A stretch of 64,000 bases of DNA from Desulfobacterales bacterium (GCA_011049715.1 DRHF01000109.1:1379-65378); one strand, 5' to 3'. Shown: positions 13,125 through 42,605, numbered from the stretch's first letter. The notes: generated from the sequence alone by a model not told the origin. Translations and numbers: made by a program.

Positions 13125-13147
13125 GTTCATCAAAAGGTTTTTGTATA

Positions 13148-17248: not shown

Positions 17249-17521
17249 ATGGAAAAAGTAAATGCGCTTCAAATCAGAAACAATCTGGGTCAAATATTGG
17301 ACCGCCTGAATGAAAAAGGTGAGCCCATCCTAATCAGCAAAGCACACAAAATAAGAGCGGTATTGGTTACCCCCGAACAATTTGAAAAGCGATTTTTAGA
17401 CTGGCAATCTCAAGATAAAAAGAAACGCCTGCTAAATGCAGTGAAAGAACTGAGGGAAAAAAGAGTGGGAAATTTGACGAGTCTTTCTGTTCTGCGTGAG
17501 TTGAGGGGTTATAAAAATTGA
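17249..17521 (+). CDS. Type II antitoxin, Phd/YefM family
   Basis: MEKVNALQIRNNLGQILDRL...GEPILISK; 4-bp overlap with a PIN toxin gene. Confidence 0.85.
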   Translation: MEKVNALQIRNNLGQILDRLNEKGEPILISKAHKIRAVLVTPEQFEKRFLDWQSQDKKKRLLNAVKELREKRVGNLTSLSVLRELRGYKN

Positions 17522-17949
17522 TCTGGGTTATAGACGCTTCCGTCGCTATTCGATGGTTCATTAAGGAAGAGGCACATCCCCATGCGGATGAAGTTTTGAA
17601 AGGGATTATAGACGATCCTGAAAGGTTTGCTGTACCGGAATTATTTGGATTCGAAGTCTTTTCTGTTTTGTGCCGTTTACATTCAAATGGACTCGATGCT
17701 TTTCAAAAAGGGGCCATTCCAATTCTCCAATTGGGCATATTTCGGCAACCTATGACAAGCAACTTGGCAGGGTTGGCAAATAATTTCGTCCAATTGGGGT
17801 TAACAGGTTATGATGCGTGTTATGCGGCGCTTTCAAAAGATTTAAACGGAACCTGGTTGACTTTTGACAAAAAGGCGCATCAGTTGATTCAAAAAGAAAA
17901 AGTATCGCACCTATTGGATGATGAACTCCCAAATGGTTGGCCAGATTAA
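17518..17949 (+). CDS. Type II toxin, VapC (PIN domain)
   Basis: VIDASVAIRW, E, YDACY, LTFD acidic PIN pattern; TTG start. Confidence 0.88.
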   Translation: MIWVIDASVAIRWFIKEEAHPHADEVLKGIIDDPERFAVPELFGFEVFSVLCRLHSNGLDAFQKGAIPILQLGIFRQPMTSNLAGLANNFVQLGLTGYDACYAALSKDLNGTWLTFDKKAHQLIQKEKVSHLLDDELPNGWPD

Positions 17950-25046: not shown

Positions 25047-25102
25047 TTTTCCCCACACGGATGGAAATTTTGTAAACGTTCACAGGGTTAGTTAGTAAAA
25101 CT

Positions 25103-26500: not shown

Positions 26501-26518
26501 GCCTGAAAGGCTATCATA

Positions 26519-27110
26519 GTGAGACTCCGCCCGCAAAGCGGGTGGCCTCAGGAAGCCCCAAAGGGGCTATTATGATTTATTCAAAATCAAAATCCAGTTG
26601 TTTTACAGCTTCTTCCTGTTCACGAATATATTTGCGGATGGTTTCTTCATCCAAACCAACTGTACTCACGCAGTATCCTCGGGACCAGAAATGCTTACCC
26701 TTCGTTTGTTTGCTTTTTAGCAAATACCGGTGGATTCGAACTGCGCTCTTTCCTTTCAAGAAACCAATTACAAACGCAATGCTGAACTTCGGAGGAACGC
26801 TCAGACACATGTATATATGGTCCAACCTCAAATTGCCTTCCAATAATTCAACTTCACGTTGCCGACAAAGATCTTTTAGAATATCGCCAACATTGCGCTT
26901 AAATTTCCCGTATAATTTCCTTTTCCGATACTTTGGAACAATGACCACATGGTATTTGCAATCCCAACGAACGCGCGATAAACTTTGCCAATCATGCATA
27001 GGTTCTTCCTCCTTATGTCCCTAATGGGGCTTTCCTGGAGGAAGAACCTATTTTATTTCTCGCCGGAATGGTAGAACCTTTCCGGGTCCACCACTAAAAG
27101 TGGTGGCTTA
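26519..27110 (-). mobile_element. IS200/IS605-family element (tnpA only)
   Basis: Subterminal hairpins CCACCACTAAAAGTGGTGG (~27088) and CCGCCCGCAAAGCGGGTGG (~26527); no tnpB. Exact ends uncertain. Confidence 0.88.
26577..26999 (-). CDS. tnpA: IS200/IS605 Y1 transposase, HUH motif altered
   Basis: YHVVIVPKYR, LKGKSA, FWSRGYCVSTVG, IRKYIREQ; DHIYM in place of DHIHM. Confidence 0.93.
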   Translation of the reverse strand: MHDWQSLSRVRWDCKYHVVIVPKYRKRKLYGKFKRNVGDILKDLCRQREVELLEGNLRLDHIYMCLSVPPKFSIAFVIGFLKGKSAVRIHRYLLKSKQTKGKHFWSRGYCVSTVGLDEETIRKYIREQEEAVKQLDFDFE

Positions 27111-27161: not shown

Positions 27162-28076
27162 CTATTTTTTTCCCCACCTAAAACAGTAATGAATTATTGT
27201 CTCCATCAGCGAGTTATAAAGCGTGGAAATCAATCCATAAATTCCAAAGAGGCTGAGGCATGATTTAAATGTTTTAATTTTAAAATAATTAGCCAGCTCA
27301 TTATTAGATATTCTCGAATAGTATGCAAACAATGAAGCGTTAGTCATTAAGTGCATTTTGATTTTTTCTTCGCGATTTTTTTTTGAAAGCATGCTATTAT
27401 CATGAACTCTGTATCTTGCAGGCGTTATGTCCCCCAAATATTTTCCTTTGCCATACTGCCCAAGAAGCGACCACAGAAACAAATCACCAATTTTAGCTAT
27501 AGCCATTTCTGGCGGAAAGGCAGTTATTACATTTCGAAAGCAAGTCGTTAATGTAAATATAGGGGTACGTCTTTGCAATTCAGTTGACTCTAGGTCTCTA
27601 AGAGCTCCACCAAAGTTTATATTAAGATCTCCAGTTTCATCAAAAGGCTGTGAATTATGATATGTAAGTACATAATCTGGATTTTCTTCCAAAAAAGTCA
27701 CTTGCTTTTGAAGTTTATGTGGATCAACCCAGTAATCATCTCCGTCACAAAGGGCAATGTACTTTGCCCTACTTTGTTTGATGGCAATCGGAGCTATTCT
27801 TCTACCCTTTGAATATTGATTTTCTTCTTGAAGAATAAGCCTTATTATATTTTTGTATTTTCGTGCATACTGCGTGATGATGTTTTTTGTAGAATCGGTT
27901 GAAGCATCATCATGAATAATTATTTCAAAAGGAAAGTCGGTTTCTTGGTTTAAAAACCCTTCGACTGCATCTTCGATATAATTTTCATGGTTATAAGTAA
28001 TACAACAAACGCTCACTAAAGGAGTATTGCTATTACTCCAATTTTTCATTATTTCTTGCTCGGTTTTTGCTCTCAT
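27162..28076 (-). CDS. GT2 glycosyltransferase
   Basis: PLVSVCCITYNH, HDDASTD, CDGDDYW, KLQKQV. Confidence 0.92.
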   Translation of the reverse strand: MRAKTEQEIMKNWSNSNTPLVSVCCITYNHENYIEDAVEGFLNQETDFPFEIIIHDDASTDSTKNIITQYARKYKNIIRLILQEENQYSKGRRIAPIAIKQSRAKYIALCDGDDYWVDPHKLQKQVTFLEENPDYVLTYHNSQPFDETGDLNINFGGALRDLESTELQRRTPIFTLTTCFRNVITAFPPEMAIAKIGDLFLWSLLGQYGKGKYLGDITPARYRVHDNSMLSKKNREEKIKMHLMTNASLFAYYSRISNNELANYFKIKTFKSCLSLFGIYGLISTLYNSLMETIIHYCFRWGKK

Positions 28077-28144: not shown

Positions 28145-28957
28145 TCATGGTTTCTTAACAATATATAGAACACTCTGTTGTGTTATTCCATGTTTGACAA
28201 ACTGTTGAATACCAAATTCTTCAACACCCAACTGCTCCAATTCAAAGCCTGCTTCAATAATGCGATCAATAAACCCTTGTTTTGAGTACTTTCTCACATG
28301 ATCACCTTGGCCAAATCGACGCCATCTTTCTGCAACATCGCTACAATCAGGATTTTCATCTATTTCCTTAAGTGACAAATCAATGGGAACCATAAGAATG
28401 CCTTGACCGCCATTTTTCAGGATCCTGTACAATTCCCTTAAAGCCTGACGGTCATCTTCAACATGTTCAAGCATATGTGAGCAAATGAAAAGATCAAAAT
28501 AGTAATCATTATAAATAGTCATATCTGAGATATCTACTTTATCGTTTACCCCATCTGCGTGGAGATCTGCTGTACGATAATGAAAATAAGGTAATCCTGA
28601 GAATTCAGAGATTATAAATGAAGACAAACCTTTAGTAGGTGCTAAATCAAGCGTATTGAATGAAGTTTTTTTAGAACTTAATTTCTTGCTGATAAATTGT
28701 CGCAGATAGATTGCGTACAGCCTGTCTCTATCAGCAGCGCCACAATGAGGGCAAGAATATTGCTCTCGATTGCACGTTTCGGCTGGTCCTATTTTGTACC
28801 CATATTTCTTGAAATTATCAAAATAAAACCTGGGAAGTGGCCGAAAACTAATAACTTTTTTCTTGCAAACACTACAGCTATATTTGCCAAAAATATGTAT
28901 TGCCCCACTGAAATACCTTACAATCTCTCTCAATATCCTTTTCCAAATTTTTATCAT
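28145..28957 (-). CDS. SAM-dependent methyltransferase with N-terminal CxxC...CxxC motif
   Basis: CSVC...CPHC, CSHMLEHVEDD, FGQGDHVRKY. Confidence 0.85.
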   Translation of the reverse strand: MIKIWKRILREIVRYFSGAIHIFGKYSCSVCKKKVISFRPLPRFYFDNFKKYGYKIGPAETCNREQYSCPHCGAADRDRLYAIYLRQFISKKLSSKKTSFNTLDLAPTKGLSSFIISEFSGLPYFHYRTADLHADGVNDKVDISDMTIYNDYYFDLFICSHMLEHVEDDRQALRELYRILKNGGQGILMVPIDLSLKEIDENPDCSDVAERWRRFGQGDHVRKYSKQGFIDRIIEAGFELEQLGVEEFGIQQFVKHGITQQSVLYIVKKP

Positions 28958-30426
28958 TTTACCTGTGTCTTCGCTTTAAAAATAATACTTTTTCGCGAAA
29001 ATAGCATATCACACATCTCCATAAAAACACCTGATTGGAAGTAAAGGCAAAGAATACCGTAAATTACTATCCCAATAAATATTTGGGAAAGCAGCAAGGT
29101 AATATTGTTGGAGAACGTGACTAATTGTACAGAATAAATCCCAACTCCCATTACAGCACTTATTGGTAAGTAAGACGCAAAGTCGAACACCTGTTCCTTT
29201 AAAGGATAATCGATCATCTTTCCTGTGTAATAGGCGTTCACAAAATAGGCAAGAAAGGATGTGGCAATCTGCCCATAGATCATGGCTGTGATACCCCACC
29301 GGTAAGTGACGGTAATGGCAATCACAATCAGGATCCTTTTCAGTATCTCAAGTCGGAATAATAGATTGGAACGACCCTGAGCAATCAAAACATTCAGATT
29401 TATTGAATGAACTGGATACAACATTCCAACCACGCAAAGCAATTGCAAGTATGGAACACATGGAATCCATTTTTCGGTGAGCAATACCAGAACCAGCGGT
29501 TTGGCCACAATCGCCAAACCTACCATTATGGGAAAATTGATCACTACCAGCATGGTCAGCGCCTTACGAAGACCATGTTTTAACCGGGGTTTATCATCCT
29601 GCATCGACGAGAACACAGGAAAAGTAACCCGCCCGACTATACTAGAGATATTTGTTACAGGTAGTTGCTGAAGTTCCTTGGCGCGGGAATAAAACCCCAG
29701 GGCCATCGGAGAAAAAAGTTTACCTATCACCACAAGATAAATATTTTGGAAAACAGTATCGAGTAAACCCGAAGCAAAAAGACGCGAGCCAAAAGCAAAC
29801 ATACCGCTCAGGGAATCAAAGCTAAAGACCAGTGATGGGCGCCAGGTGTTGAAAAACCACAATAGAATGATTCGAAAAAGATTGCTGCCAAGCGACTGCC
29901 CCACCAGGCTCCAGACGCCAAAACCATTGAAAGCCATAGTTATACCAATCGCTCCTGAAACAATAGTGGCTATCATGCTTACTTTTAGTTGTGTCTTGAA
30001 ATCTAGCTGCTTTGTGAGCAGAGTAATCTGCACTAGGCCAAAAGCATTAATAATTAGATTAAGAGACAAGGCGTATGTCAGAGTCGCCAACAACGGCTGA
30101 TTATAAAACCCGGCTATCCACGGCGCAGATAGACACAGAAGGCCGGCAGCAAGAAAGCCCACAAGAATATTGAAATAAAATATCGAACATTCATCAATAT
30201 GAGTTACGTCTTGCTTTTGAATCAGGGCCTGGCCAAACCCGCTGTCAATAAACGACTGGGCACCAGCCATAAAAATCGCCATCATGGCAATCAGGCCAAA
30301 CTCTTCGGGTAGAAGCAACCGGGCCAGAATGATCGAGATGATAAGTTGGATTCCCAACTGGCCAAAGCGCTCAAGAAAACTCCAGAAGAGGGCGTGCAAT
30401 GTTTTGTTTTTTAATCCGTCTGACAT
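28954..30426 (-). CDS. wzx: Wzx/WzxC polysaccharide flippase
   Basis: ILARLLLPEEFGLIAM, DSGFGQALIQK, LGFYSRA; 12-14 TM segments. Confidence 0.93.
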   Translation of the reverse strand: MSDGLKNKTLHALFWSFLERFGQLGIQLIISIILARLLLPEEFGLIAMMAIFMAGAQSFIDSGFGQALIQKQDVTHIDECSIFYFNILVGFLAAGLLCLSAPWIAGFYNQPLLATLTYALSLNLIINAFGLVQITLLTKQLDFKTQLKVSMIATIVSGAIGITMAFNGFGVWSLVGQSLGSNLFRIILLWFFNTWRPSLVFSFDSLSGMFAFGSRLFASGLLDTVFQNIYLVVIGKLFSPMALGFYSRAKELQQLPVTNISSIVGRVTFPVFSSMQDDKPRLKHGLRKALTMLVVINFPIMVGLAIVAKPLVLVLLTEKWIPCVPYLQLLCVVGMLYPVHSINLNVLIAQGRSNLLFRLEILKRILIVIAITVTYRWGITAMIYGQIATSFLAYFVNAYYTGKMIDYPLKEQVFDFASYLPISAVMGVGIYSVQLVTFSNNITLLLSQIFIGIVIYGILCLYFQSGVFMEMCDMLFSRKSIIFKAKTQVK

Positions 30427-30499
30427 ATTTCAGGAACTCTTATGCCTCATAAAAGGTTTGGCTACACGATTCAGGATTCGTCAGCACCGCTCGTCTCAT

Positions 30500-30565
30500 T
30501 CAGATATGCTCGAAAAATAACCATAGCAAAGCGCCAACTGTCCTTTACCGCAAAGTCTCGCTCAT
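30500..30565 (-). pseudogene. 5' remnant of a second wzx flippase
   Basis: Reads MSETLR*RTVGALLWLFFEHI*, aligning to the intact wzx start MSDGLKNKTLHALFWSFLERFG. Confidence 0.5.
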
Positions 30566-30647
30566 TTCTTCGCAGCGCTTTCTGTTGATCGACAGGTGCG
30601 TTGCGCGATTCCACGCTGTACAACGACCCCGCTGTTCAGAATAGGAG

Positions 30648-30892
30648 CTATGTTTCTGAATTCAGGTGGGCCATAATCTCCTCCGGGGTATTCCACATCA
30701 ACACGTCAATGATCGAGAGTCCAGGAACGAAATCCCAGCGTCGGCAATCATATTCCATATTCTGGAATTCTTGGATTTTGAGGGTGATGCCGCTGGCAGC
30801 GAAGTTCCCAGTGTCAAAAGTATCAGCTCCGCCAGGGGAATTGAGGTATTCCGTCGCGCCCATTGCTTCTGAAATTCGCAGCGCCCAGTCGA
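30648..30892 (-). pseudogene. C-terminal fragment of a WbqC-family protein
   Basis: WALRISEAMGATEYLNSPGG...FVPGLSIIDVLMWN is a typical WbqC C-terminus; the N-terminal two thirds are missing. Confidence 0.85.
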
Positions 30893-31009
30893 CGACAAAC
30901 GCTTTTCAACACTCCCACGTTCAGGTGCGAGATATAAGATTCCTTTTCATCATCTTTTTGCACAATTTCATTCGATCTGCCGGGTTTTGGTTTTTCCAAA
31001 GAAACAGAG

Positions 31010-31185
31010 AAGTTCAAATACACTGTAGGGGTAAAAACGATCTGATTCTTCCTCCTGAAAATGCGTTTAAATTGGAAAAACACTTCAAACATGCCAAAGT
31101 AGCACTTCTACCAAAATGTGGTCATTTACCTCATGAAGAAAAGGCCGATGATTTCAATAAACTCGTTTTACAATATCTTTCTTGA
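31010..31185 (+). pseudogene. C-terminal fragment of an alpha/beta hydrolase
   Basis: GKNDLILP (catalytic Asp) and CGHLPHEEKADDFN (catalytic His); no GxSxG part upstream. Confidence 0.75.
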
Positions 31186-31197
31186 AAATATCGATTT

Positions 31198-32502
31198 TTA
31201 TGATGTGGGTATCGGTCGAGAAACCCATCGAACAAGATGATGATTTAACATATATCCGTCCCAGGGAAGTTCAAATTGCGTCATCGCACCAAGCTCGGTA
31301 AATCGCTGTACTCCTTTTTCCGCAAATAACATTGTCAGGATTTCATATCTTTCCTTTTCAGCAATCAAGCCAACTGATTGTACATTTGGGGTGATAAGAT
31401 CGGCAACACGCTCCAGACGATCTACTTTTCTAATGAATAACGTTCTGTTTCCTATTGGGGGTCCCAATTTTATCTCATCGTCCGAAAGAATTGTAAACTC
31501 AATACCGTCAGAATACCAAGCTTTATGAAACATATCATATTGTGCTCTTAAATTCAAAATTGCCGAAACTTCCTTTTGAGTTGGAACTGTTTTAGGAATG
31601 GACAGAAGTGCATTATTTAATGCTTGCTTAAGAAGAAACGCAAATTCTTCCAGTTCAGTTTCATCTTCGGTCTCAAGGAACAATGTGTGAGGCGATGCAC
31701 AGGCCTTTTGCTCAAAGACGGACATGTCCGTGGCAATCCGTTTTGAAATAGTCTCCTTGTCAATTGATTGTAAAGAATTTTTATCGATAATCATCAATGA
31801 GGTTTTATTGGAAAAAACCAAATCCATGACTCCAAGTTTGGCAGGAAGCGAACGTAAAGCTTTGACGCTATCATCATTTCCCCAAAATATTCGAACGTCT
31901 GCATGTTCGGAAATAAATCGTCCCAATTCTTTCTTAGAACTATCATATCGGATAACAGCAATAGATCTTGCCAACTCTTTGCAACTATGGTTCTCATCAA
32001 TTGTTACCTTGGAAAGAATTTCCAAGAGTCGGGCCAGTAAATCACCAGATTGGGAAGATGTCTTGATCAGGTTAACATTTTTAGTTAATATTCCCTGGAT
32101 TAGTGATAGAAAACCTAAAGTTGGTACATTACCGGCCATCCAGTGAATCACCAAGCCTCTGGGTAAAGCGCGATATGAGCGGTTTTTTACAGCTGACCCT
32201 GACACGAAGCTATCAAGGACATATATGTCTGAAAAACTGTTTTTTAGCAAACGAATTAGATTTGATTTACGGCACCACCCAGCAATATATGCAATACCAG
32301 AATTCGGAAAAGCACGATGAATGGGATTTTGTCTATCCATTAGTCTCTTACTGAAATCATCGAAAACGTCGATAATCTTACCTACTGGCAATTGTCCCAG
32401 AACATTTCCGGCATTTATAATGCCATCGATAATTTCAGATATTTTATAGTTTTCCTGTGCAACCCGCCCATTATAAAAATCAGCTTGAACTTGCTCCATC
32501 AC
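31198..32502 (-). CDS. luxC: LuxC-family acyl-CoA/acyl-protein reductase
   Basis: PRGLVIHWMAGNVP, NVNLIKTSS, FEQKACASP (catalytic Cys), PWDG...LVRWVS. Confidence 0.88.
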   Translation of the reverse strand: MMEQVQADFYNGRVAQENYKISEIIDGIINAGNVLGQLPVGKIIDVFDDFSKRLMDRQNPIHRAFPNSGIAYIAGWCRKSNLIRLLKNSFSDIYVLDSFVSGSAVKNRSYRALPRGLVIHWMAGNVPTLGFLSLIQGILTKNVNLIKTSSQSGDLLARLLEILSKVTIDENHSCKELARSIAVIRYDSSKKELGRFISEHADVRIFWGNDDSVKALRSLPAKLGVMDLVFSNKTSLMIIDKNSLQSIDKETISKRIATDMSVFEQKACASPHTLFLETEDETELEEFAFLLKQALNNALLSIPKTVPTQKEVSAILNLRAQYDMFHKAWYSDGIEFTILSDDEIKLGPPIGNRTLFIRKVDRLERVADLITPNVQSVGLIAEKERYEILTMLFAEKGVQRFTELGAMTQFELPWDGYMLNHHLVRWVSRPIPTS

Positions 32503-33611
32503 GCAAATTTCTCCGCCATAATATCACCACAGCCCCGAATTTCAGCTTGCTTTGCTCTCCCCAACACCTTGAAAGTTTTTCCTTTCCTTCCACAAGAACA
32601 GTCATCAATCCCTGTAATACAGCCCACATCCTCTGTTAACACCGAATGCCCGGGATAAGATGTTTGTATTGGGGTAATAAACTGAAGCAAGCCTTCTTCA
32701 CCAATTCTCATCGGATTTAATGAAAGCTGATCTCTGACAACAACCTCACCCCATATTGGAACATGTCTTACCCCTGCTTCACATGTTGGATAGATCATAC
32801 CGGATTGTTCTGTAAAACCGTAGAAGTCAACAACATCCCCCTTATTAACACCAAAAACGTCACTACAATCGGCAATCAATTTCTTTGGAGATACTTTTTC
32901 AGACTCAAGTTTCTTCCATCCACCAATGTGTATAATCTTACTGCCTTTGAGTTTGTATTTCATCTTCTTTTCTAAAAGCTTACGTACAACAACCGAGTAA
33001 AGAATATAGGTAAAACCAAAAATTATAATTTCCTCTTTTGCATTTTCAGCCTCAAGTAAAAGTTTGTCAAATTTATCGTCATCAAGGTTGAACTTCCCAT
33101 CTATTTCTTCAAGGCAGGTATGAGTTTTACCGGCACAAAATAATAAGGATCGAATGGTAGAGCTTCTAGCCGTAACTTGCCTATTTCTACCAACAGATTC
33201 GGGGGTATCTATAACAATAAATTTCCTTCGCTTATTTCCAAGCCGATTAAGGACAACTTTGTTAAAACATTTGGACTGCCGGCGGCTTGTCTCTTTATCC
33301 AAAGCTATACGACTAGATCTTCCACTTGTAGTTGCACTTGAGCTTATAGTTCTGAAAATCTTATTTTCAGGTATAGATAACAGCAATGCATCTTTGAATA
33401 TAGAAGCTGGCAAGTACGGCAATTCTTCAATTTGCTGCCATTTATCATAATTAAACCTTCTCTTCTTGCAGAAGTTTTGATATGGCTGACAATTATTATA
33501 ATGATGATGTGCTACTTTTCTTAAAACTTCAATTAATAATGAAGATTTATGCGCTCTATCTAGTGAATATACTTCTTTCATTAAAAGATCGTTAAGATGT
33601 TTAAACTCCAT
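32499..33611 (-). CDS. luxE: LuxE-family acyl-protein synthetase
   Basis: LPYLPASIFK, SSSATTSG, HIGGWK, YGFTEQ, SYPGHSVLTED, GRAKQAEIRGC (C-terminal acylated Cys). Confidence 0.9.
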   Translation of the reverse strand: MEFKHLNDLLMKEVYSLDRAHKSSLLIEVLRKVAHHHYNNCQPYQNFCKKRRFNYDKWQQIEELPYLPASIFKDALLLSIPENKIFRTISSSATTSGRSSRIALDKETSRRQSKCFNKVVLNRLGNKRRKFIVIDTPESVGRNRQVTARSSTIRSLLFCAGKTHTCLEEIDGKFNLDDDKFDKLLLEAENAKEEIIIFGFTYILYSVVVRKLLEKKMKYKLKGSKIIHIGGWKKLESEKVSPKKLIADCSDVFGVNKGDVVDFYGFTEQSGMIYPTCEAGVRHVPIWGEVVVRDQLSLNPMRIGEEGLLQFITPIQTSYPGHSVLTEDVGCITGIDDCSCGRKGKTFKVLGRAKQAEIRGCGDIMAEKFA

Positions 33612-33622
33612 ATTTCTATACC

Positions 33623-33859
33623 TTATGTAAGTTTTGATTCAAAGAATGATACTATCATTTTAAAGTTTTCAAGTTCTATGCCTTCGTCAGGATTTATTTC
33701 AATGGAAAAAGTTTCTTCAAGTGCTGAAATCAACTGAACGTGGGCCAGAGAATCCCAGGATTCAACATTGTCGGGATTCGAGGAATCGGTAATGGAATCC
33801 TCATGAACTTCCATAACTTGGGAAAACACGCCTATACAAGTCTGCCTAACATTATTCAT
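33623..33859 (-). CDS. Acyl carrier protein
   Basis: Small acidic protein with WDSLAH phosphopantetheine Ser motif and LEETFSIEI. Confidence 0.9.
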   Translation of the reverse strand: MNNVRQTCIGVFSQVMEVHEDSITDSSNPDNVESWDSLAHVQLISALEETFSIEINPDEGIELENFKMIVSFFESKLT

Positions 33860-33883
33860 AAAAAATCTCCAGATTAACAATAT

Positions 33884-34846
33884 TTATTTAACAGCCAAAA
33901 CTGCTGCGTAATTAATGTTATGTCCATCTTTCTCAGATTCTTCAATGGTCATTTGTCTTAATGTGCCCAAATGCTCATCTAAAACCCTCCATTTACATTT
34001 GTCTATAAAATCTCGAATTTCTTTCACAGTTCTAAAAAGTAGAATGTGGTCTTCGGCGGGAGAGTTAGCAGCTGTTGAAAAATAGCAAAAGCCTGAGGTT
34101 TTCATTTTAGTAGCCATGTTTGACATCACTGCTTCACCATCCTGAATATGCTCTATAAGCTCTCCCATCAGCAAAGCATCAAGAGATTCATCCTCAACTG
34201 GAATTTCCTTTTGTATATCACAAATAATGGGCTCTGCTCTTTTGGAATCAACACCAGTTGCTTCAATCATCTTTTGCGTCATTTTCAAAGCTGATGGGCT
34301 GATATCAATAAGTTTGGATTGCATCTCCGGACAACCGCGCAAGAGCTCGGAATGAAAAAGCCCATGGCCAACACCAACTTCAGCACCATTTGAAAAGTCC
34401 TTTACCTTGGGAATAAAACTATCAAGAAAAAATTTAAATATTTCCCAATGGTTCGGCCAAAATATCTGGGTCATGCCTAAGCCTACAACATAATCAATCA
34501 TATAATCGTCACGCCCATAAACTTTTCTAAATACTTCTTCATAATCAGAATACCTATAATTGCCTTCTTTCCTAAAGTACATCTCCTCAATGCGAATGGT
34601 TTTCGTATACCAGAGATATGTTTTCGCAATATATTCATATCCATCCTCGCAATCTACTACCTTCAGCATTCTATTTGCAAGACTTTCAGCAAATTCAAAA
34701 TATCGTTTATCAGCAATATTGCAATATCTATTAATTGCTTTTTTCTGAAAAGGCGATAACGCGGCAATTTGTTCAATTATTTTATATAAATTCGTGTAGT
34801 TTTTTACCATATCAGCCACATTTTCCTCCCTCATATTATTTTTCAT
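33884..34846 (-). CDS. Class I SAM-dependent methyltransferase
   Basis: EVGVGHG motif I, IDISPSA, GELIEHI, DHILLF. Confidence 0.85.
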   Translation of the reverse strand: MKNNMREENVADMVKNYTNLYKIIEQIAALSPFQKKAINRYCNIADKRYFEFAESLANRMLKVVDCEDGYEYIAKTYLWYTKTIRIEEMYFRKEGNYRYSDYEEVFRKVYGRDDYMIDYVVGLGMTQIFWPNHWEIFKFFLDSFIPKVKDFSNGAEVGVGHGLFHSELLRGCPEMQSKLIDISPSALKMTQKMIEATGVDSKRAEPIICDIQKEIPVEDESLDALLMGELIEHIQDGEAVMSNMATKMKTSGFCYFSTAANSPAEDHILLFRTVKEIRDFIDKCKWRVLDEHLGTLRQMTIEESEKDGHNINYAAVLAVK

Positions 34847-35534
34847 TTTTCTGAATCACTTCCGGCTCATTAAAGAAAAAACATATTTCAGCTTCAAAAT
34901 TTACATTCAAACCCTTTACTGAACATCTGCGAATAAGGTAGCATTTACCATTATGATGAACTGTTGACTTGTTCTTAAACTTGACTTCTTTATATATTGA
35001 AAACTCACTATTATCCGGCCATTTAAAATTGGTTAAATATGCCCATGATGGCCTACCACTTACCCCAGTATGAATCACCTCGGCCATGCAGTATCGGTAG
35101 TTTGCTTCTACTACTCCACGAACAAGAGAAAATGTGTCAGATATATTATTTAGAACAGTTAAATATATACCATCTTCACTTTTATACTCATCTTCAATGT
35201 ATATACTTCGATCATAATCTTCCTTTCTCTCAACAACTGGTTGTCTTTTTTGTTCAAATAGTAAAAGTTTTTTTCCTCCACTTTCTCCGGTCAAAATGTG
35301 CATCTGGGCAGCAGCATCTCGACTTATAATATTTGAAGCATCATCATCTTTAATCTCTAAAAAACAATTAGACCTAATGAACCGATTGATTTTGAATGAT
35401 TTAATACTTGTGATAAATCCATTCTCATTACTTATCTTATCTATTTTTTGATAACTTTTCAGCATTTCTTCAAAAATAGTTAAACCATTCACATAATCTC
35501 GTTTGCCCAAGTAAAACAATGGAATATATATCAT
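34836..35534 (-). CDS. Hypothetical protein in the acylation cassette
   Basis: Long ORF with RBS GAGGAG, overlapping the next gene, same strand as the operon; family not recognised. Confidence 0.7.
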   Translation of the reverse strand: MIYIPLFYLGKRDYVNGLTIFEEMLKSYQKIDKISNENGFITSIKSFKINRFIRSNCFLEIKDDDASNIISRDAAAQMHILTGESGGKKLLLFEQKRQPVVERKEDYDRSIYIEDEYKSEDGIYLTVLNNISDTFSLVRGVVEANYRYCMAEVIHTGVSGRPSWAYLTNFKWPDNSEFSIYKEVKFKNKSTVHHNGKCYLIRRCSVKGLNVNFEAEICFFFNEPEVIQKNEK

Positions 35535-35629
35535 ACATATTCTCCTCAATTTTCCATCTTACATTTTAGGTAAATAATAGTGTCTTCTTCCGATGTCTTT
35601 TTATCAATAGTTTTTGAATTATGTTGCAT

Positions 35630-36571
35630 TCACGAATACCGTGCTGGTACTCCTGATAATTTCCCGCTATATGTCTTCAAATTCAATTTCTCCGCAGGGT
35701 TTCCAAATAACGTTATGCCGGTTTCTTTAAAATTCTTTACTACAACAGCCCCAATTCCAATTGTTGTATTATCAGGTATTTTGATATGAGGTCTGGCAGA
35801 AGTTGCGGACCCCAAAAAACAGTTCTTTCCGCTCTGTACAGAACCTGCCAGAGAAACATTACTTGCCAAGTGGTTATTTTCTCCTATAATACAGCTATGT
35901 CCAATTAAAGTCCCATGACCTATTAAACTCTTTCTTCCAATAATTGTAGGTGTGTTCTCAAAGGCACCTTTAACAATTGTGACATTAGAACCTATAAATA
36001 CATCATCTTCAATAATGACATTTCCTGTTTGCAAACACCGTATCTTATTTCCTTTTTCATCCCAGGCCCACATGACACCGGTAGCGCCAATTACAGAATT
36101 GGACTGTATATGAATATTATCTCCTATTTTAGTACCTTTATGAATTTTCACTCCGGATTCAATTAGCACATTTTCCCCAATCAAACAGTCCTCTATCAAA
36201 CTAAATGGACCAATAGATGCATTTTTTCCTATAATAGCAGATTCATGAACAATTGAATGAGGATGAATTTCATAATCCCTTTTGTTTTCAAATAAAGAAG
36301 ATATATAATAAAATAATAATTGTGGATGTTTAGTAAAAATGTAAGCGTTTTTCAGCTTTTCATTTATTTTTAAATCGGGCTTACAGATGATAATTGATTT
36401 TTCTATTCTCTCTATACTATCCGGCTTATTACCTTCATAATAACATAATGTTTCTTTTACTTCCGGACCTATGGCTGATAATTTATTAACTTGTATATCA
36501 TCTCCATGTACATTGAATTCTAGATTCTTTGAATTCAAAAAATCTATTATAGTTTCTAATTTAATAACCAT
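35630..36571 (-). CDS. LpxD-like hexapeptide-repeat N-acyltransferase
   Basis: N-terminal LpxD-type domain, left-handed beta-helix repeats (IHPHSIVHESAIIG, GNVIIEDDVFIGSN), IGHSC catalytic His, GNPA. Confidence 0.82.
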   Translation of the reverse strand: MVIKLETIIDFLNSKNLEFNVHGDDIQVNKLSAIGPEVKETLCYYEGNKPDSIERIEKSIIICKPDLKINEKLKNAYIFTKHPQLLFYYISSLFENKRDYEIHPHSIVHESAIIGKNASIGPFSLIEDCLIGENVLIESGVKIHKGTKIGDNIHIQSNSVIGATGVMWAWDEKGNKIRCLQTGNVIIEDDVFIGSNVTIVKGAFENTPTIIGRKSLIGHGTLIGHSCIIGENNHLASNVSLAGSVQSGKNCFLGSATSARPHIKIPDNTTIGIGAVVVKNFKETGITLFGNPAEKLNLKTYSGKLSGVPARYS

Positions 36572-36664
36572 TTTAATAACCTCACATAAATTTCCTTAAA
36601 ACTGTTCTTGGACAATAGTGGTTTTATTATACTTAAAACTACAAATTTAAATTTGTTCCCCTAA

Positions 36665-37861
36665 CTAACTAACTTTTGAGATAGAATATGTGCGTGAAGT
36701 GGTTACTTCTTCAGTAATTTGCATTGCTGTTGTTCTTTCTCTATGAATATGCATAATAATATCACAAATTCGATTCACATCATCCAGACTCAAATCATAA
36801 TAAGTGGGCAATGTTAGAATACGTTCCGAAACTTTCTGCGCTACTTTCAGGGAGGCAACTATCGATATGCTTTTATAACACGCGAAATCACATATTAGCG
36901 GATAAAAATATCGTCTCGCAAAAACATTGTATTGATTCAGTTTTTCATAAAGTTCATCGCGGTTCATGCCGAACTCCTTCTCATCTACTTCGATAGGCAT
37001 GTAGGCGTAGTTGTATCGAATGTCCTCTGGGAGTGGTGGTGGCAGATGGATTCCAGGAACTGTGCTGAACCTCTCGCGATAAAGCGTGTCGATCTGCTGG
37101 CTCTTTTCGATGATTTCGTCGAAATACTTGAGGACATGGATGCCCATAAGGGCCTGTATTTCGGTCATCTTGGCGTTGGTCCCGGGCATCACGACTTCGA
37201 CTTGGCTCTTAAAGCCGAAATTCTTCAGGTAGTCAAAAGTGCTTTTGAGACCCGAATCCTTAAAGGTCAAGAGGCCACCTTCGAGGGAGTGGTAGGACTT
37301 GGTGGCATGAAAGCTGAACATGCTCATATCGCCAAAGTGCGCGATAGACCTGCCGTTCACCTCTACGCCGAATGCGTGCGCCGCGTCGTAGATCAGGTTC
37401 AGATTGTGACGCCGGGCAATGTCTGCCAAGGCGTGCAAATTGGCAGGATAACCAAAGACATGGACCGCGAGGATCGCAGTGGTCCAAGGGGTAATGGCTG
37501 CCTCAACCTTCTCGGGGTCTAATGTATAGTAGTCTGGCTCGATGTCCACGAAAACGGGCCGGATCTTATTCCAGAAGAGAGCGTGAGTGGTGGCAACGAA
37601 AGTGAACGGGGTCGTGATAACCTCGCCGGAAATTCCCATCCCCTGCAGCCCGATTTGCAGCGCCAAGGTGCCGTTGGTAAAGAGACACGCATTATCCGTC
37701 TGGAAATAGTGAGACAACTGACGGGTGAAACGCTGAAGAACTGGTCCGTCGTTCGTCAGCCAGTGGGTATCCCATATTTCCTTAAGGCTTTCACAGAAAT
37801 CCTCAAACCTTGGCAAAAATGGCTTGGTAACATATATCGGCTTTTTAAAAGGTTTTATCAT
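36665..37861 (-). CDS. DegT/DnrJ-family sugar aminotransferase (VioA-like)
   Basis: IYVTKPFLP, TTPFTFVAT, YDAAHAFG, SFHATK (PLP Lys), GTNAKM, RRYFYP. Confidence 0.93.
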   Translation of the reverse strand: MIKPFKKPIYVTKPFLPRFEDFCESLKEIWDTHWLTNDGPVLQRFTRQLSHYFQTDNACLFTNGTLALQIGLQGMGISGEVITTPFTFVATTHALFWNKIRPVFVDIEPDYYTLDPEKVEAAITPWTTAILAVHVFGYPANLHALADIARRHNLNLIYDAAHAFGVEVNGRSIAHFGDMSMFSFHATKSYHSLEGGLLTFKDSGLKSTFDYLKNFGFKSQVEVVMPGTNAKMTEIQALMGIHVLKYFDEIIEKSQQIDTLYRERFSTVPGIHLPPPLPEDIRYNYAYMPIEVDEKEFGMNRDELYEKLNQYNVFARRYFYPLICDFACYKSISIVASLKVAQKVSERILTLPTYYDLSLDDVNRICDIIMHIHRERTTAMQITEEVTTSRTYSISKVS

Positions 37862-38057
37862 GTTAACTCCATATTAGGACGTTGCCACCTTCTATAGGTG
37901 GAAAAAAGAGGGACAGCCATGATTTTATGCGTTTCTTATCTTTTTTTAGCGGATCTGGTGTGTTTGCTGCTATTGTTTAGTATCAGGGAGATGAATTCTT
38001 GAAAATGCAATTTTGTATCCAGCTCCACCCCTTAATTAGCACGAACATAATGAGTTA

Positions 38058-38495
38058 TTAATCGGTTAAAATCACTTCCCAATACCCATTTCGATCACTT
38101 CCAAAGCGTTTTAATCGCTCCGTGGCCTTTAATTTTACAATATGCCCTTTAATCGTATTCGGACTTTTTACAAGAGCTCTGGCGAGATCTTCACGCGTTA
38201 TATTTGGATTTTTACTCAGGAGAGCGAGGATTTGATCACGAGTTCGAGTTTTCTGGGTGGCTTTGAAAATCGTTACCTTAAAACCTTTCTGAATCTCTTC
38301 AAAAACCGGTTGGGGCAGGTCGTACTCGCTAAAGGTCTCAAGAACTCTTTTGATACCAGATCCATATTTTTCGATTATTCCCGCTTCCTTAAATACTGTT
38401 GCGATTTGTTTATTTCGTATGGAAGGAGAATAGTCTCCTCGGATCAGTTGCTCTACGGCTAATCCATCCGGCAGATTACCAGGATTAAAATGCGA
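38058..38495 (-). pseudogene. C-terminal fragment of a RecG_C/HATPase + HTH protein
   Basis: FNPGNLP...IRNKQIA...IEKYGSGIKR then HTH ending GSDRNGYWEV; the N-terminus is replaced by the TA module. Confidence 0.8.
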
Positions 38496-38508
38496 GCAAC
38501 CTCCCTTC

Positions 38509-38928
38509 TCATGGATTATGCCAGTTTTCAATTTTCAGCCTCAAAAACTGTTTAAAATCGTCAATGTTCCGCGTTACCAGGATCAGACCATTCACCACGG
38601 ATATTGCCGCAATCTGTCCATCAACAAATGACGGGGTTAAGCCTTTCGATGATAATCTGGCACGTTCTCTTGCATGCCACTCTGCTGCCCTGTCGTCATA
38701 AGGTAGAATAAGCATCGTGCGTTTGACGATGTCGTTAAGGAATGAAGCGAGTACTTCACGTTTACGGGATCGCGGAAGGCGTTGACAACCAAATTGAAGC
38801 TCATGCCAAACTGGCGCCGCAGTGACGATCTCGTGCTGGAATTTTTCAAACATCTTCAAGACCGAGGTATCCGGGACAGTTTTCACTGCCTCTGATAGTA
38901 CGTTTGTATCAATGAGATATTTCATCAC
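38509..38928 (-). CDS. Type II toxin, VapC (PIN domain)
   Basis: YLIDTNVLSE, DGQIAAI, LVTRNIDDF. Confidence 0.93.
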   Translation of the reverse strand: MMKYLIDTNVLSEAVKTVPDTSVLKMFEKFQHEIVTAAPVWHELQFGCQRLPRSRKREVLASFLNDIVKRTMLILPYDDRAAEWHARERARLSSKGLTPSFVDGQIAAISVVNGLILVTRNIDDFKQFLRLKIENWHNP

Positions 38929-39206
38929 CTCAACTCGACTTCTCTTCCGACAGATAGGTCTCGAAGTCCTTTGAAATCCCTTTCAGATATCTCGATCCCT
39001 TCATCTTCAAACTTTCGTCGAAATTCCGAAATGGCATTCCAAAACCCAGTATATTTGCGGCTGAGCCGTTCATATTCTCGAATCGACAACAACATTGCAA
39101 CCGGTTTTCCTCGTCTGGTCAATTCAACATGTGGCCCTTTTTCGACATAATGGATAATTGTAGGAAGTCTATTTTTTGCTTCAGCTATGGAAAATTGCTT
39201 TTGCAT
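38925..39206 (-). CDS. Type II antitoxin, Phd/YefM family
   Basis: FSIAEAKNRLP, LTRRGKPVA; overlaps the toxin start. Confidence 0.92.
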   Translation of the reverse strand: MQKQFSIAEAKNRLPTIIHYVEKGPHVELTRRGKPVAMLLSIREYERLSRKYTGFWNAISEFRRKFEDEGIEISERDFKGLRDLSVGREVELR

Positions 39207-39242
39207 TATAACCACCTCTTTGACACGTTATATTTTTTGTCG

Positions 39243-39687: not shown

Positions 39688-40104
39688 TCACTTTTTTTCT
39701 AATCTGTGTATAAAAGGCAACTTGATTTGATCAACTATAGTAATGATTTCAAATTCAGGATCTTTGTGAATGAGGGTAGCATTGTAAATAATCGCATGGG
39801 CCACAATGATAGAATCTGCTATGGATATCTGATGAACTGCTTTAATTTCCCCTCCTTTCAACAAAACAGGTTCAGTCAGTTCCGAAATGTGGTTCGCCTT
39901 GATACTCTTCAGGGTGGCATACCTCAATTGAGCTGCTTCAAGGCCCTGGTACTGAATGGTCTTGTAATAGACCTCAAATAAGACCATTGCAGGGAATATG
40001 ATTTTTTTTGTTCGTAAAATATTTTCGACAATATCGGCCCCTTCCTCATTGTCCATCATTGTCAGAATTGCCGATGTGTCGGGCAAAAAGAGGTTACTCT
40101 TCAA
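39688..40104 (-). CDS. Type II toxin, VapC (PIN domain)
   Basis: DTSAIL, EVYY, SIADSII, HKDPEF. Confidence 0.9.
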   Translation of the reverse strand: MKSNLFLPDTSAILTMMDNEEGADIVENILRTKKIIFPAMVLFEVYYKTIQYQGLEAAQLRYATLKSIKANHISELTEPVLLKGGEIKAVHQISIADSIIVAHAIIYNATLIHKDPEFEIITIVDQIKLPFIHRLEKK

Positions 40105-40822: not shown

Positions 40823-42577
40823 TCAAAATTGTTTTGAATCGGGAAGCAAAACTTCTGAAATCTTAATATAGGTATATGGAGTTATACGAATTTTTTTAAG
40901 TTCTTTGGTTTGAAACTCTTTATTTAGAACGGTGCGTTTGTAAATTTTTTCTGAATCACTATGATATCTTTGAATGGCAACAATCTTGTTAATCTGGCGG
41001 GAGGAATATATTTTTCTCAATTGGTTATTGACAGCTGAATAACTTAACGCACTGTAATCATGTATGATATATAAATTTGGTTGTTCGGCAACAATTAAAG
41101 GATACTGCTTTTTCTTATAATGCTCATTTAAAAATGCCATAACTTGTCCGTATTCATACTGGAGAGACAAACCATTAATAATCCTTTGCTGTATTCCATA
41201 TGGCCAGTAAATCAACAAATGAAATAGGAAAAAAATACTCAATACCAAATGGGAGGATCGACGTTTATGAAATAATGTATGAATGCAAAATATAGTACAG
41301 AAAATTATATACGGTAAAAAAATTAATGCCAAACGGTTATCCATTGGAATTTTAAAATTCCCCCAATAAAAAGAAGTGATAATACCGAATAACACAACGC
41401 ATGAGCTCCCTCCACTGGCAACAAGTTTTTTAAAAGGAAGATCAACTTCTTTGGTGACGAATATCCTCTTTAATATGAAATAAAATCCAAATATTGCTAA
41501 TATTGCAATTACGGGTGAAAAACCCAAGTTTGGATCTAATCCCAAAAGCACCCATATATTATCATGAAAATTTTGAAACAGATTGGTCAGGCTAAATATT
41601 TGCTCCGCTTTTTCAAAAGTGACCTGTCCAATCTTATTTATTTCAGGCATATTCAGAAAAATACGTCGCTGCCAAAATACAGGAACAAATAAAAATGGCA
41701 TTATATATATACAAAACGTATATCGACTACCTTCATTTTTTACAGGCAACCTGAAAAAAAACGGTATTAATAATAAAAAAATTATCGATTCATACCTACA
41801 TTGTGCGAGTAATACAAAAGTTGCACAGAGCAATTCAATATATCTTATGTCCTTACGAATAAATATTTCATACATTATAAAAAAACTGAAAATGATAAAA
41901 AACAGATTTAAAGACTCAAATCCGCTTGAAGTAATACTCATAACATAAACGGGAAACGATGATAGTATTAGTATTGATAACATACCGAAAAACGGATTAA
42001 ACAACCTTGTAAAGAACAAAAATAGAAAAAATAATGAAAAAATACTTAATATAAAATTCAGTATAAATCCGTTGTTAGGGCTATACCCGGAAAGAGTATG
42101 GATTAAAGATACAAGAAAAGGGAATAGGACTGGCCGTTTATCAATAGTTTTAGAATATTCCGGTCTTGCATAATCAGCGTATAATCCCTCAATGGGGAGA
42201 GAAGTCTCCTTATCCTGAAACATCATCATCGAAACACCGATCAAATTTGTCTCATCAGATAAAATTTTAAACTGGGGAGGGGATATGATGAAAATGATTA
42301 CCGTTATTAAGATAGATAATAACAAGCCTGAAAGATGATGATAATTAAAAAATTTGATTTTTTTGTAATAAATACGGAAAAAAAGAAATATCCAAATGAC
42401 AAATGCAACTAGTATGAAAAAATACGCAAAATTCTGAAATAGTAATTTTAAAAGACCAATCGATGGCATTATACCCAGAAAAATTGATGCTGCCATCGCA
42501 GCGGTAAAGTATAAAAATCCACGACGGAAAAACATTTTTATAGAAGAAAATAGAATTAGAATTCGAGACCTTTGCAT
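40823..42577 (-). CDS. AT-rich multi-pass membrane protein, probable GT-C glycosyltransferase
   Basis: ILSDETNL acidic pair, KRP.LFP.LVS, RYE, R after late TM; more than 12 hydrophobic segments. Confidence 0.6.
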   Translation of the reverse strand: MQRSRILILFSSIKMFFRRGFLYFTAAMAASIFLGIMPSIGLLKLLFQNFAYFFILVAFVIWIFLFFRIYYKKIKFFNYHHLSGLLLSILITVIIFIISPPQFKILSDETNLIGVSMMMFQDKETSLPIEGLYADYARPEYSKTIDKRPVLFPFLVSLIHTLSGYSPNNGFILNFILSIFSLFFLFLFFTRLFNPFFGMLSILILSSFPVYVMSITSSGFESLNLFFIIFSFFIMYEIFIRKDIRYIELLCATFVLLAQCRYESIIFLLLIPFFFRLPVKNEGSRYTFCIYIMPFLFVPVFWQRRIFLNMPEINKIGQVTFEKAEQIFSLTNLFQNFHDNIWVLLGLDPNLGFSPVIAILAIFGFYFILKRIFVTKEVDLPFKKLVASGGSSCVVLFGIITSFYWGNFKIPMDNRLALIFLPYIIFCTIFCIHTLFHKRRSSHLVLSIFFLFHLLIYWPYGIQQRIINGLSLQYEYGQVMAFLNEHYKKKQYPLIVAEQPNLYIIHDYSALSYSAVNNQLRKIYSSRQINKIVAIQRYHSDSEKIYKRTVLNKEFQTKELKKIRITPYTYIKISEVLLPDSKQF

Positions 42578-42605
42578 AACCTCCACATTTATACTATCAG
42601 ATGAA

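Follow-up and report, generated by a model that had tools for sequence, protein, structure and literature searches.

A LuxE-LuxC operon without luciferase as a candidate route to non-acetyl N-acyl decoration of a surface-glycan amino sugar

What is a LuxE-LuxC pair doing in a glycan operon that holds no luciferase? The question is raised by a 64-kb stretch of DNA from a Desulfobacterales bacterium (the window, meaning the whole stretch that was analysed), in which seven intact open reading frames (ORFs), all on the minus strand between positions 31198 and 37861, encode a sugar aminotransferase, an LpxD-like acyltransferase, an orphan protein that we call UNK, a methyltransferase (MT), an acyl carrier protein (ACP), LuxE and LuxC. 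Here, we propose that this operon serves the decoration of a surface-glycan amino sugar with an N-acyl group other than acetyl, a scheme whose steps we infer and which we consider, taken as a whole, on balance probable. Its general element, an ACP-dependent N-acylation of the sugar, is likely. The five-gene core of UNK, MT, ACP, LuxE and LuxC represents a rare form of the widespread tetronate-type cassette, one that moves horizontally.

The operon and its enzymes

The seven genes, by coordinate, are:

31198..32502, minus strand: LuxC-like NAD(P)H-dependent acyl-thioester reductase (PF05893, E 2.5e-78; PDB 7xc6_A, E 7.6e-18)
32499..33611, minus strand: LuxE-like adenylate-forming acyl-protein synthetase (PF04443, E 2.6e-75; PDB 7xc6_E, E 7.6e-20)
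33623..33880, minus strand: dedicated ACP of 85 amino acids (PF00550, E 1.6e-4; ACP models, E 1.3e-7), likely start at Met codon 8
33884..34846, minus strand: class I methyltransferase dependent on S-adenosylmethionine (SAM), called MT (Methyltransf_11, E 6.2e-11, residues 156-256)
34836..35549, minus strand: UNK, an ORF of 237 amino acids with a predicted double hot-dog fold, likely start at Met codon 6 (35534)
35630..36571, minus strand: LpxD-like left-handed beta-helix (LbH) N-acyltransferase with hexapeptide repeats, best models LpxD
36665..37861, minus strand: DegT-family, DesI-like 4-aminotransferase of a nucleoside diphosphate (NDP)-4-keto-6-deoxyhexose (PF01041, E 8.4e-94)

From the aminotransferase gene to luxC, the intergenic distances in operon order are 93, 80, -11, 3, 11 and -4 nt. 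An earlier note on this DNA, made from the sequence alone, had named the seven genes and their tight packing on one strand, all of which read as it claimed. It had also described the cassette as very AT-rich. This is real, as the genes have guanine-plus-cytosine (GC) contents of 0.32-0.39 (aminotransferase, 0.47) against 0.425 for the window, but it was overstated, since 26% of the 111 lines of 60 bases have a GC content of 30% or less and their mean is 0.38.

Does the organism produce light? The source assembly is a metagenome-assembled genome (MAG) of 5.38 Mb in 461 contigs, 94.8% complete and with 5.35% contamination. The statement in the earlier note that luxA, luxB and an intact luxD are missing is borne out across all of it: the LuxA/LuxB family PF00296 has 0 matches at E ≤0.001 in the assembly, with none in the window, and the LuxD family PF02273 has one partial match of 26.5 bits (79 residues) on another contig, the neighbourhood of luxC holding a hydrolase remnant only. 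LuxC scores 112 bits against the equivalog model NF052251 (cut-off 750) and LuxE 92.6 bits against NF052244 (cut-off 550), while both satisfy the broad Pfam families. Bioluminescence is for practical purposes ruled out by the missing luciferase family, the missing LuxD and the missed Lux equivalog cut-offs.

The pair nevertheless belongs to the same two families as the lux fatty-acid reductase LuxC-LuxD-LuxE (7xc6), and its cysteines align with those of that enzyme. C268 of LuxC falls on the Cys of 'QQACFS' in the solved LuxC-LuxE complex (7xc6_A), and C361 of LuxE, which is invariant in an alignment of 15 LuxE sequences, on the Cys of 'KGCSLS' (7xc6_E). We take these two 7xc6 cysteines to be the acylated residues. 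The catalytic Cys motifs are intact, as had been noted earlier. The chemistry common to both systems is presumably the conversion of an acid to an acyl-AMP, a thioester and an aldehyde. They differ in that identity is about 25% and in that the cassette has its ACP, MT and sugar genes where lux has LuxA/B and LuxD. The start of luxC overlaps the stop of luxE by 4 nt, and this is the single LuxC-family gene in the whole assembly. The ACP has a WDSL motif whose Ser is residue 44 of the ORF, and its gene ends 11 nt before luxE. A phosphopantetheinyl transferase is not found in the window; in one majority-type cassette with split genes (see below), a PF01648 4'-phosphopantetheinyl transferase lies just upstream of the ACP (L060:6772-7152).

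At the sugar end of the operon, the aminotransferase scores 319 bits against the NCBIfam DesI model TIGR04427 (cut-off 650), 200 bits against PseC and 170 bits against ArnB. Its closest solved structure is DesI (2po3; E 3.7e-70, 240 bits), with the next match at E 4.3e-46 and 161 bits, and we infer from this resemblance that it supplies the amine to be acylated. The genome itself holds a true RmlB, the deoxythymidine diphosphate (dTDP)-glucose 4,6-dehydratase (477.7 bits, cut-off 365.1), and this, together with the DesI-like best structure match, makes dTDP-4-amino-4,6-dideoxyhexose a reasonable acceptor, of putative nucleotide and configuration. The best match to NeuB elsewhere in the genome reaches 28 bits at most.

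The LbH protein scores 168.4 bits against the LpxD model NF002060 (cut-off 207), over profile positions 4-315 of 345 with the N-terminal nucleotide-binding domain included, and 168 bits against TIGR01853 (cut-off 242.5). Having missed the curated scores, it is best classified as LpxD-like and not as LpxD. In the PDB ranking, LpxD (3eh0, 4ihf and 4ihg, at 4e-29) comes ahead of LpxA and of the acetyl-coenzyme A (CoA) enzymes PglD, PerB and VioB. The His of 'IAHN' in Escherichia coli LpxD, which we take to be the catalytic residue, has His225 as its counterpart in the alignment. The protein is thus nearer to the enzymes that use acyl-ACP than to those that use acetyl-CoA; it is presumed to be acyl-ACP dependent, and would deliver its acyl group to the 4-amine.

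A variant of the tetronate-type cassette

Is the operon one of a kind? A search with LuxE found 4955 relatives at E ≤0.001 among 7690 candidates, of which 15 were aligned, and a scan with that alignment through one genome per species matched 327 stretches, confirmed 240 and kept the best 80 as loci. The census of these loci was made by tblastn with the window and locus proteins (E ≤1e-6, at least half of the query covered, no more than 7 kb from LuxE), and layouts were checked by Pfam in 17 loci. LuxC stands beside LuxE in 76 of the 80 loci, and the four misses all end within 0.6 kb past LuxE; in 57 of the 76, LuxE and LuxC share one open frame. Also near LuxE are an ACP (63/80), an AMP-binding ligase (62/80), an iron-dependent alcohol dehydrogenase (Fe-ADH; 59/80), a DegT aminotransferase (16/80), an LbH acyltransferase (15/80) and NeuB (12/80). 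Pfam scans of ten of these loci bore out a recurring arrangement in which the ACP is followed by a ligase of about 485 aa, an Fe-ADH of about 375 aa and a LuxE-LuxC of about 827 aa.

To judge from gene content, this recurring majority layout is the one seen in rfbK-N, the tetronate genes of Vibrio cholerae O1. These are described as encoding a LuxE/LuxC protein, an Fe-ADH and an ATP-binding ligase of 471 aa (PMC4772473; PMC9915646, Table 1; PMC3441752). The account in PMC3441752 gives the ligase, WbeL, as a protein of 471 aa with an ATP-binding site that is required for tetronate synthesis, and the O1 antigen as perosamine (a 4-amino-4,6-dideoxyhexose) N-acylated with 3-deoxy-L-glycero-tetronate in amide linkage. 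The locus of Vibrio fortis (L021) has ORFs of exactly 2478 nt and 1125 nt, plus a 473-aa ligase. The cholera product, a four-carbon acid, thus bears an amide at one end and at the other an alcohol, in the position that a carboxylate would occupy in a diacid precursor. In the simplest reading of the majority cassette, the ligase would tether one carboxylate of a diacid to the ACP, LuxE-LuxC would turn the other into an aldehyde, the Fe-ADH would turn that into an alcohol, and the acyltransferase would pass the product to the amino sugar.

The window resembles rfbK-L-M-N-O (wbeK-O, VC0248-VC0252) in its dedicated ACP, its LuxE and LuxC, its adjacent N-acyltransferase and its glycan locus without luciferase, and also in its putative acceptor, a 4-amino-4,6-dideoxyhexose, the genes for the sugar aminotransferase and the N-acyltransferase lying directly upstream of the core. 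It differs in having neither an AMP-ligase (WbeL-like) nor an Fe-ADH (WbeM-like) and in carrying MT and the double hot-dog protein instead. Moreover, its LuxE and LuxC are separate genes, as against one cholera protein of 825 aa, its LuxE shares only 38-45% identity with that of the majority type and groups in a separate clade, and its aminotransferase is DesI-like where cholera has a perosamine synthase. Because of these differences in genes, the product is probably not tetronate.

How far does this variant extend? MT is found in seven of the 80 loci (L002-L008) and UNK in six, and neither is found in the other 73. Conversely, the ligase occurs in none of the seven as against 62 of the 73, and the Fe-ADH in none as against 59. 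L002-L006 retain the gene order UNK-MT-ACP-LuxE-LuxC, whereas L007 and L008 have the set rearranged. In L002-L004, identity to the window proteins is 71-72% for MT, 68-69% for LuxE, 58-62% for LuxC, 47-59% for ACP and 38-51% for UNK. A quick maximum-likelihood analysis (IQ-TREE) of 81 LuxE sequences places the eight window-type rows in one split (SH-aLRT 100, branch length 0.81), within which the window LuxE is sister to that of L002, from an uncultured Desulfobacterium (support 99). The search for LuxE of the window type found none in two genomes of the same genus, in nine more of the same family or in 28 of 29 of the same order. In a sample of 400 other genomes of the phylum, two have matches to the UNK profile and five to the MT profile at E ≤1e-30. 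The variant is thus rare and patchy.

Its surroundings vary as well. In L002-L004, the core and LbH lie among PseB-, PseC-, PseG-, NeuB- and CMP-transferase-like genes; flagellin and Maf adjoin the core in L002, as does Maf in L004, and no GNAT (PseH-like) gene was seen at the expected position in these three loci. L005, L007 and L008 have an AAC(3)-like acyltransferase in place of LbH, accompanied in L005 and L007 by a DUF4910/DUF2172 domain or protein of the Campylobacter Cj1295 family. The aminotransferase and LbH of the window are 22-32% identical to the counterparts in these relatives, which argues that the five-gene core is the mobile unit, coupled to varied amine-making and transfer enzymes. 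An aminoglycoside-3-N-acetyltransferase-like protein (PF02522) also lies near LuxE/LuxC in L012, L014 and L032, where other loci have LbH.

Similar sets have been annotated in flagellin glycosylation islands, where ACP, LuxE and LuxC likewise stand beside pseudaminic-acid genes, as the core does among the pse-like genes of L002-L004. They are recorded, as annotation only, in Aeromonas (98 group II strains; PMC7874193) and in Enterobacteriaceae (PMC4875605). As given there, the islands carry a 3-oxoacyl-ACP reductase and an AMP-dependent synthetase, and the listed genes include no cassette MT or hot-dog protein; the window operon, in contrast, lies near genes for pilins and a membrane glycosyltransferase of the GT-C type.

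The kind of cassette has been known by sequence since 1995, and it is widespread. In that year Morona et al. (Gene 166:19) reportedly proposed the tetronate pathway from sequence. The LuxE domain of RfbN is recorded in PMC4772473, which cites Morona et al. 1995. The claim of the earlier note that no characterised pathway has this exact set holds in so far as the set, with MT and UNK replacing ligase and dehydrogenase, has no description in the searchable literature (subscription journals and preprint supplements lying outside that scope); the kind of set has precedents in cholera O1 and in the flagellin islands. New here are a distinct LuxE/LuxC clade, an orphan family with a predicted double hot-dog fold and an ACP-linked MT family, which replace the ligase and the dehydrogenase.

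What the parts of the core would do

In light of this exchange of parts, what might UNK and MT contribute? UNK has no sequence match in Pfam, NCBIfam or the PDB (0 PDB matches at E ≤10). Searching with the single sequence gave 10 relatives out of 106 candidates, and searching with a profile gave 38 out of 2306 (from 5.8 billion clusters), none of them named and none with a Pfam domain; for at least 14 of the 38, the longest contig has the same length as that of a LuxE relative, which suggests that the two genes may be co-located there. An AlphaFold2 model built on an 11-row alignment (predicted local distance difference test, pLDDT, 86.2; predicted template modelling score, pTM, 0.85) has two helix-in-sheet repeats and matches only double hot-dog proteins, both in Foldseek and in VIA-align over 48,161 chains, the scores lying too close together for a choice of subfamily. 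The double hot-dog fold is thus a prediction from the model. In the 11 sequences, E27, E28, Y112, D113, R114, R144, E148, R152 and C223 are invariant and Asn21 and Asn135 nearly so; the alignment has no invariant His, and hence no His/Asp dehydratase dyad. The nearest named clusters in a language-model atlas are the AfsA/AvrD hot-dog acyltransferases (0.91; 155-160 shared features), a weak lead. Hot-dog enzymes that handle malonyl-ACP have been described, namely MadA/MadB, which decarboxylate it, and LnmK, a double hot-dog acyltransferase/decarboxylase (the account in PMC8666670). UNK has no sequence similarity to LnmK (6x7l) or to MadA/MadB, and many thioesterases and dehydratases outscore them in the structural comparison. 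We tentatively regard UNK as the loader of the ACP, an assignment with clearly less than an even chance; a decarboxylase, a thioesterase or a dehydratase are possible alternatives.

For MT, the very confident AlphaFold2 model (pLDDT 96) shows a Rossmann core capped at the N-terminal side by eight helices (residues 7-148), and an exhaustive HMMER search gave 1001 representatives at E ≤0.001, 79 of them at E ≤1e-30, most being proteins of about 300 aa matched over nearly their full length. An ACP lies within two genes of MT in all five further genome loci that were examined. L111 and L112 have the order radical-SAM, MT, FkbH-domain protein (303 bits, cut-off 146.65), ACP and AAC(3)-DUF4910; L113 has NeuB and, further along, MT, ACP, a MaoC hot-dog protein, an unidentified ORF and an FkbH-domain protein (259 bits); L114 has ACP, AMP-ligase, LuxE, LuxC and MT; and L115 is of the window type and lies on the same contig as L005. 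The family thus occurs with an ACP and three kinds of loader: FkbH (L111-L113), the AMP-ligase with LuxE-LuxC (L114) and UNK (window type). FkbH loads glyceryl units.

A known case of such N-acyl exchange is found in Campylobacter, the methyltransferase of whose locus presumably belongs to the MT family. Flagellin of C. jejuni NCTC 11168 carries 5-N-(2,3-di-O-methylglyceroyl)-pseudaminic acid, which is described as dependent on Cj1295 (PMC3068675), and the flagellin locus is reported to include the FkbH-domain gene cj1302 (PMC7099621). The window would share with that locus the logic of an ACP, a loader, a SAM-dependent methyltransferase and the exchange of an N-acyl group on an amino sugar. 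Distant members of the MT family in L111-L113, 26-28% identical to the window MT, lie in FkbH, ACP, AAC(3)-like and DUF4910 sets beside Maf or NeuB. The difference is that the loader in C. jejuni is FkbH and that LuxE/LuxC are absent there. We also observed that the sets of L111 (G048:C222) and L112 (G158:C139), which include DUF4910 (Cj1295-like) and a B12-radical-SAM protein, with Maf and formyltransferase-like genes adjoining L111, resemble the Campylobacter genes tied to di-O-methylglyceroyl-pseudaminic acid.

In the scheme that we propose, UNK would take the place of the AMP-ligase and load a dicarboxylic acyl unit onto holo-ACP from a ready thioester, a malonyl-type CoA ester being the leading guess. 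LuxE would adenylate the free distal carboxylate and pass it by way of the C-terminal Cys361 to Cys268 of LuxC, which would reduce it with NAD(P)H to the aldehyde. MT, in place of the Fe-ADH, would methylate the ACP-bound group on an oxygen, either of a hydroxyl or of an enol; methylation of the alpha-carbon is less likely. LbH would then shift the finished group from the ACP to the 4-amine that the DesI-like enzyme would have made on an NDP-4-keto-6-deoxyhexose, and the decorated sugar would enter a Wzx-dependent surface glycan.

Several of these assignments follow from the comparison of loci. As LuxE is the sole adenylating enzyme of the window type, the ACP must be charged from an already activated donor, and since the MT family is seen with FkbH, the AMP-ligase or UNK in the position of the loader, loading is assigned to UNK. 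Reduction of the distal carboxylate by LuxE/LuxC is a serious possibility that falls slightly short of probable. For MT, O-methylation of a hydroxyl or enol has much the same standing and C-methylation of a 1,3-dicarbonyl thioester is rather unlikely; the former is favoured because an MT in an FkbH context can hardly act except on an oxygen of a hydroxyacyl-ACP. Beside these genes, L007 and L008 carry, after the ACP, a protein of 637-639 aa with AprA N-terminal, winged-helix and AprA MT2-like domains (L007:12373-14286 and L008:12340-14259; E 2.6e-68 and 1.5e-74). AprA domains of the apratoxin loading module methylate and decarboxylate malonyl-type ACP thioesters, and the two proteins are a hint of malonyl-type substrates. 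A 602-aa protein of L111, considered as a further AprA-like candidate, proved unrelated to the L008 protein.

The earlier note had proposed that an acyl group is built on the ACP and transferred to a 4-amino-4,6-dideoxyhexose, with no part in light production. That general logic stands, in view of the DesI-like enzyme, RmlB and the recurrence of LbH and DegT genes in the census. What probably does not stand is the role given to the Lux pair, the loading of the ACP, since the fusion of LuxE and LuxC in 57 of 76 loci and the retained hand-over cysteines make them more likely reducers of a carboxylate to an aldehyde. Could LuxE all the same load the ACP with a small monocarboxylic acid, MT and UNK tailoring it, LuxC acting as an acylating aldehyde dehydrogenase or as a trimmer of by-products, and LbH making the transfer? 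LuxE is indeed the only adenylating enzyme of window-type cassettes, with the AMP-ligase in none of the seven; the ACP gene lies 11 nt from luxE; LuxE bears the name acyl-protein synthetase; and LuxC belongs to the aldehyde dehydrogenase-like superfamily. We nonetheless think this route unlikely, because Cys361 is kept and aligns with a 7xc6 Cys in the LuxE chain that pairs with LuxC, because the fusions and the 4-nt overlap argue for a direct hand-over from LuxE to LuxC, and because reduction of the ACP thioester by LuxC would deprive LbH of its donor. Less likely still is a fatty 'liposugar', in which UNK would act like LuxD or plant FatA in freeing a fatty acid, LuxE/LuxC would convert it to a fatty aldehyde, and LbH would add a long (hydroxy)acyl group. 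This would leave the cassette ACP and MT without a role, no consumer of a fatty aldehyde is encoded, and the pair falls far short of the true Lux equivalog models (LuxC at 112 bits for a cut-off of 750, LuxE at 92.6 bits for 550); furthermore, the sole relative with a known product, cholera O1, is described as having a four-carbon acid (PMC3441752).

There is also a slight chance, the smallest that we assign to any of these readings, that the operon is a recently acquired passenger, possibly silent or misassigned, that has no role in the glycan of this organism. Its low GC content (0.32-0.39 against 0.425), the IS66/IS200 genes at 25.1-27.0 kb, the VapC/Phd pair at 38.5-39.2 kb and the hydrolase remnant speak for this, as do the failure to find its LuxE type in 11 of 11 same-family and 28 of 29 same-order genomes, the 5.35% contamination and the oversized genome. 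Against it, each of the seven ORFs is intact and fits its model over the full length, with catalytic residues kept, the neighbouring glycosyltransferase and methyltransferase genes have an equally low GC content (0.33-0.38), as is often the case in glycan loci, and Wzx comes next on the same strand.

The scheme of ACP loading, carboxylate reduction and O-methylation faces difficulties of its own. The argument from exchanged parts draws on few independent loci, namely seven of the window type (G166 being the same contig as L005) and a single one that joins ligase and MT (L114). The cassette has no enzyme to take an aldehyde to a hydroxyl, and O-methylation would therefore need an enol, a prior hydroxyl or a housekeeping reductase. 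The structural and family matches of MT are those of a generic class I enzyme, the BioC and UbiG models matching weakly. The aminotransferase, with its GC content of 0.47 and its 22-29% identity to the aminotransferases of relatives, has been coupled to the core recently and not in a conserved way, and LbH, which lies under the LpxD cut-off, may draw on either an ACP or a CoA donor. The searchable literature, with subscription papers outside its scope, yielded no biochemical work on the tetronate genes or on LuxE/LuxC from a glycan locus. Finally, the 461-contig MAG, with its contamination of 5.35%, is much larger than the two same-genus genomes (2.9 and 3.6 Mb), so that the bin may be mixed and the host of the contig is uncertain.

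A bolder form of the proposal, which we consider distinctly unlikely, makes UNK the first member of a family of its own, double hot-dog acyl-CoA:ACP transacylases that stand in for an adenylating ligase. Working with LuxE/LuxC and an O-methyltransferase that acts on the ACP-bound group, it would give a methylated C3/C4 oxo- or methoxy-acyl group from the diacid thioester of a central metabolite, with no ketosynthase; one example is a unit of the 3-methoxyacryloyl or methoxy-alkanoyl type derived from malonyl-CoA. If true, the 4-amino sugars and pseudaminic acids of anaerobes would bear N-acyl decorations of a new class, and the cassette would be one module of a toolkit whose three slots are interchangeable: a loader (FkbH, AMP-ligase or hot-dog protein), a tailoring step (LuxEC, Fe-ADH or MT) and a transfer enzyme (LbH or AAC(3)-like).

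N-acyl groups other than acetyl, whether on amino sugars or on nonulosonic acids, influence phage receptors, antigenicity and motility, and almost all the enzymes that make them, those of cholera O1 tetronate included, are without assigned roles. In the cassette, the ACP and LuxE-LuxC are fixed, while the ligase or hot-dog protein and the alcohol dehydrogenase or MT are exchangeable, a pattern that gives a direct experimental handle on the job of each part. With the variant, the candidates for glycan tailoring and glycoengineering gain two families: a hot-dog family that is confidently modelled in structure but orphan in sequence, and an MT family linked to ACPs. It is a natural experiment for dissecting a widespread and neglected pathway, and introduces no new principle.

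Genomic setting of the operon

Outside the seven genes, the window contains the following features:

5974-14938, plus strand: region with a sigma-54 response regulator (PilR-like) and two genes resembling those of type IV pilins (7624-8073 and 8472-8924)
17518-17949 and 39688-40104: two PIN-domain genes flanking the glycan region
18166-19860, plus strand: PMT_2 (GT-C) membrane glycosyltransferase
20122-21075, plus strand: ArnC/AglJ-like polyprenyl-phosphate glycosyltransferase, adjoining the PMT_2 gene
24156-25058 and 27162-28076: family 2 glycosyltransferase (GT2) genes on either side of the insertion sequence (IS) cluster
25103-25741 and 25874-26536, minus strand: IS66-family transposase, in two ORFs
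26577-26999, minus strand: IS200/IS605 transposase, amid the run of glycosyltransferase genes
28954..30426, minus strand: Wzx/MOP flippase (NF007773, 275 bits, cut-off 273; O-glycosylation flippase model, 340 bits, cut-off 720)
31009..31182, plus strand: 3' remnant of an alpha/beta-hydrolase gene, about 58 codons, convergent with luxC
38058-38531: truncated HATPase_c_4/HTH ORF
38509-39215: VapC/Phd toxin-antitoxin pair, upstream of the cassette
40823-42586, minus strand: second PMT_2 protein (GC content about 0.31-0.34 over 1 kb)

The Wzx gene, 3' of the cassette and on the same strand, would place the operon in a context of glycan export. Further downstream on that strand, Wzx is followed by methyltransferase and glycosyltransferase genes, which are broken up by the IS66 and IS200 genes; the low GC content of the cassette (see above) is common to these neighbours. 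The hydrolase remnant, in the 771-bp gap between wzx and luxC, gives weak matches to the C-terminus of BphD and is 39% identical over 61 residues (E 2.7e-7) to a hydrolase within the L008 cassette (L008:8345-9205, Desulfospira joergensenii); it is no working part of the cassette. A scan for promoters and terminators over 30300-38300 gave counts inside the shuffle range (32 against 24.8 ± 4.5 and 4 against 5.5 ± 2.7, respectively).

Flagellin was not seen among the window genes, and it is pilin and GT-C genes that neighbour the locus instead. The pair of ArnC/AglJ-like and PMT_2 proteins suggests that single sugars pass from a lipid carrier to an acceptor in the periplasm, for which the pilins are possible candidates. 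After the pilin-like genes come three proteins of 596-707 aa with C-terminal TPR repeats, the N-terminal 450 or so residues of which have no Pfam match. The window also encodes an indolepyruvate:ferredoxin oxidoreductase (768 bits), which points to a host of the anaerobe type.

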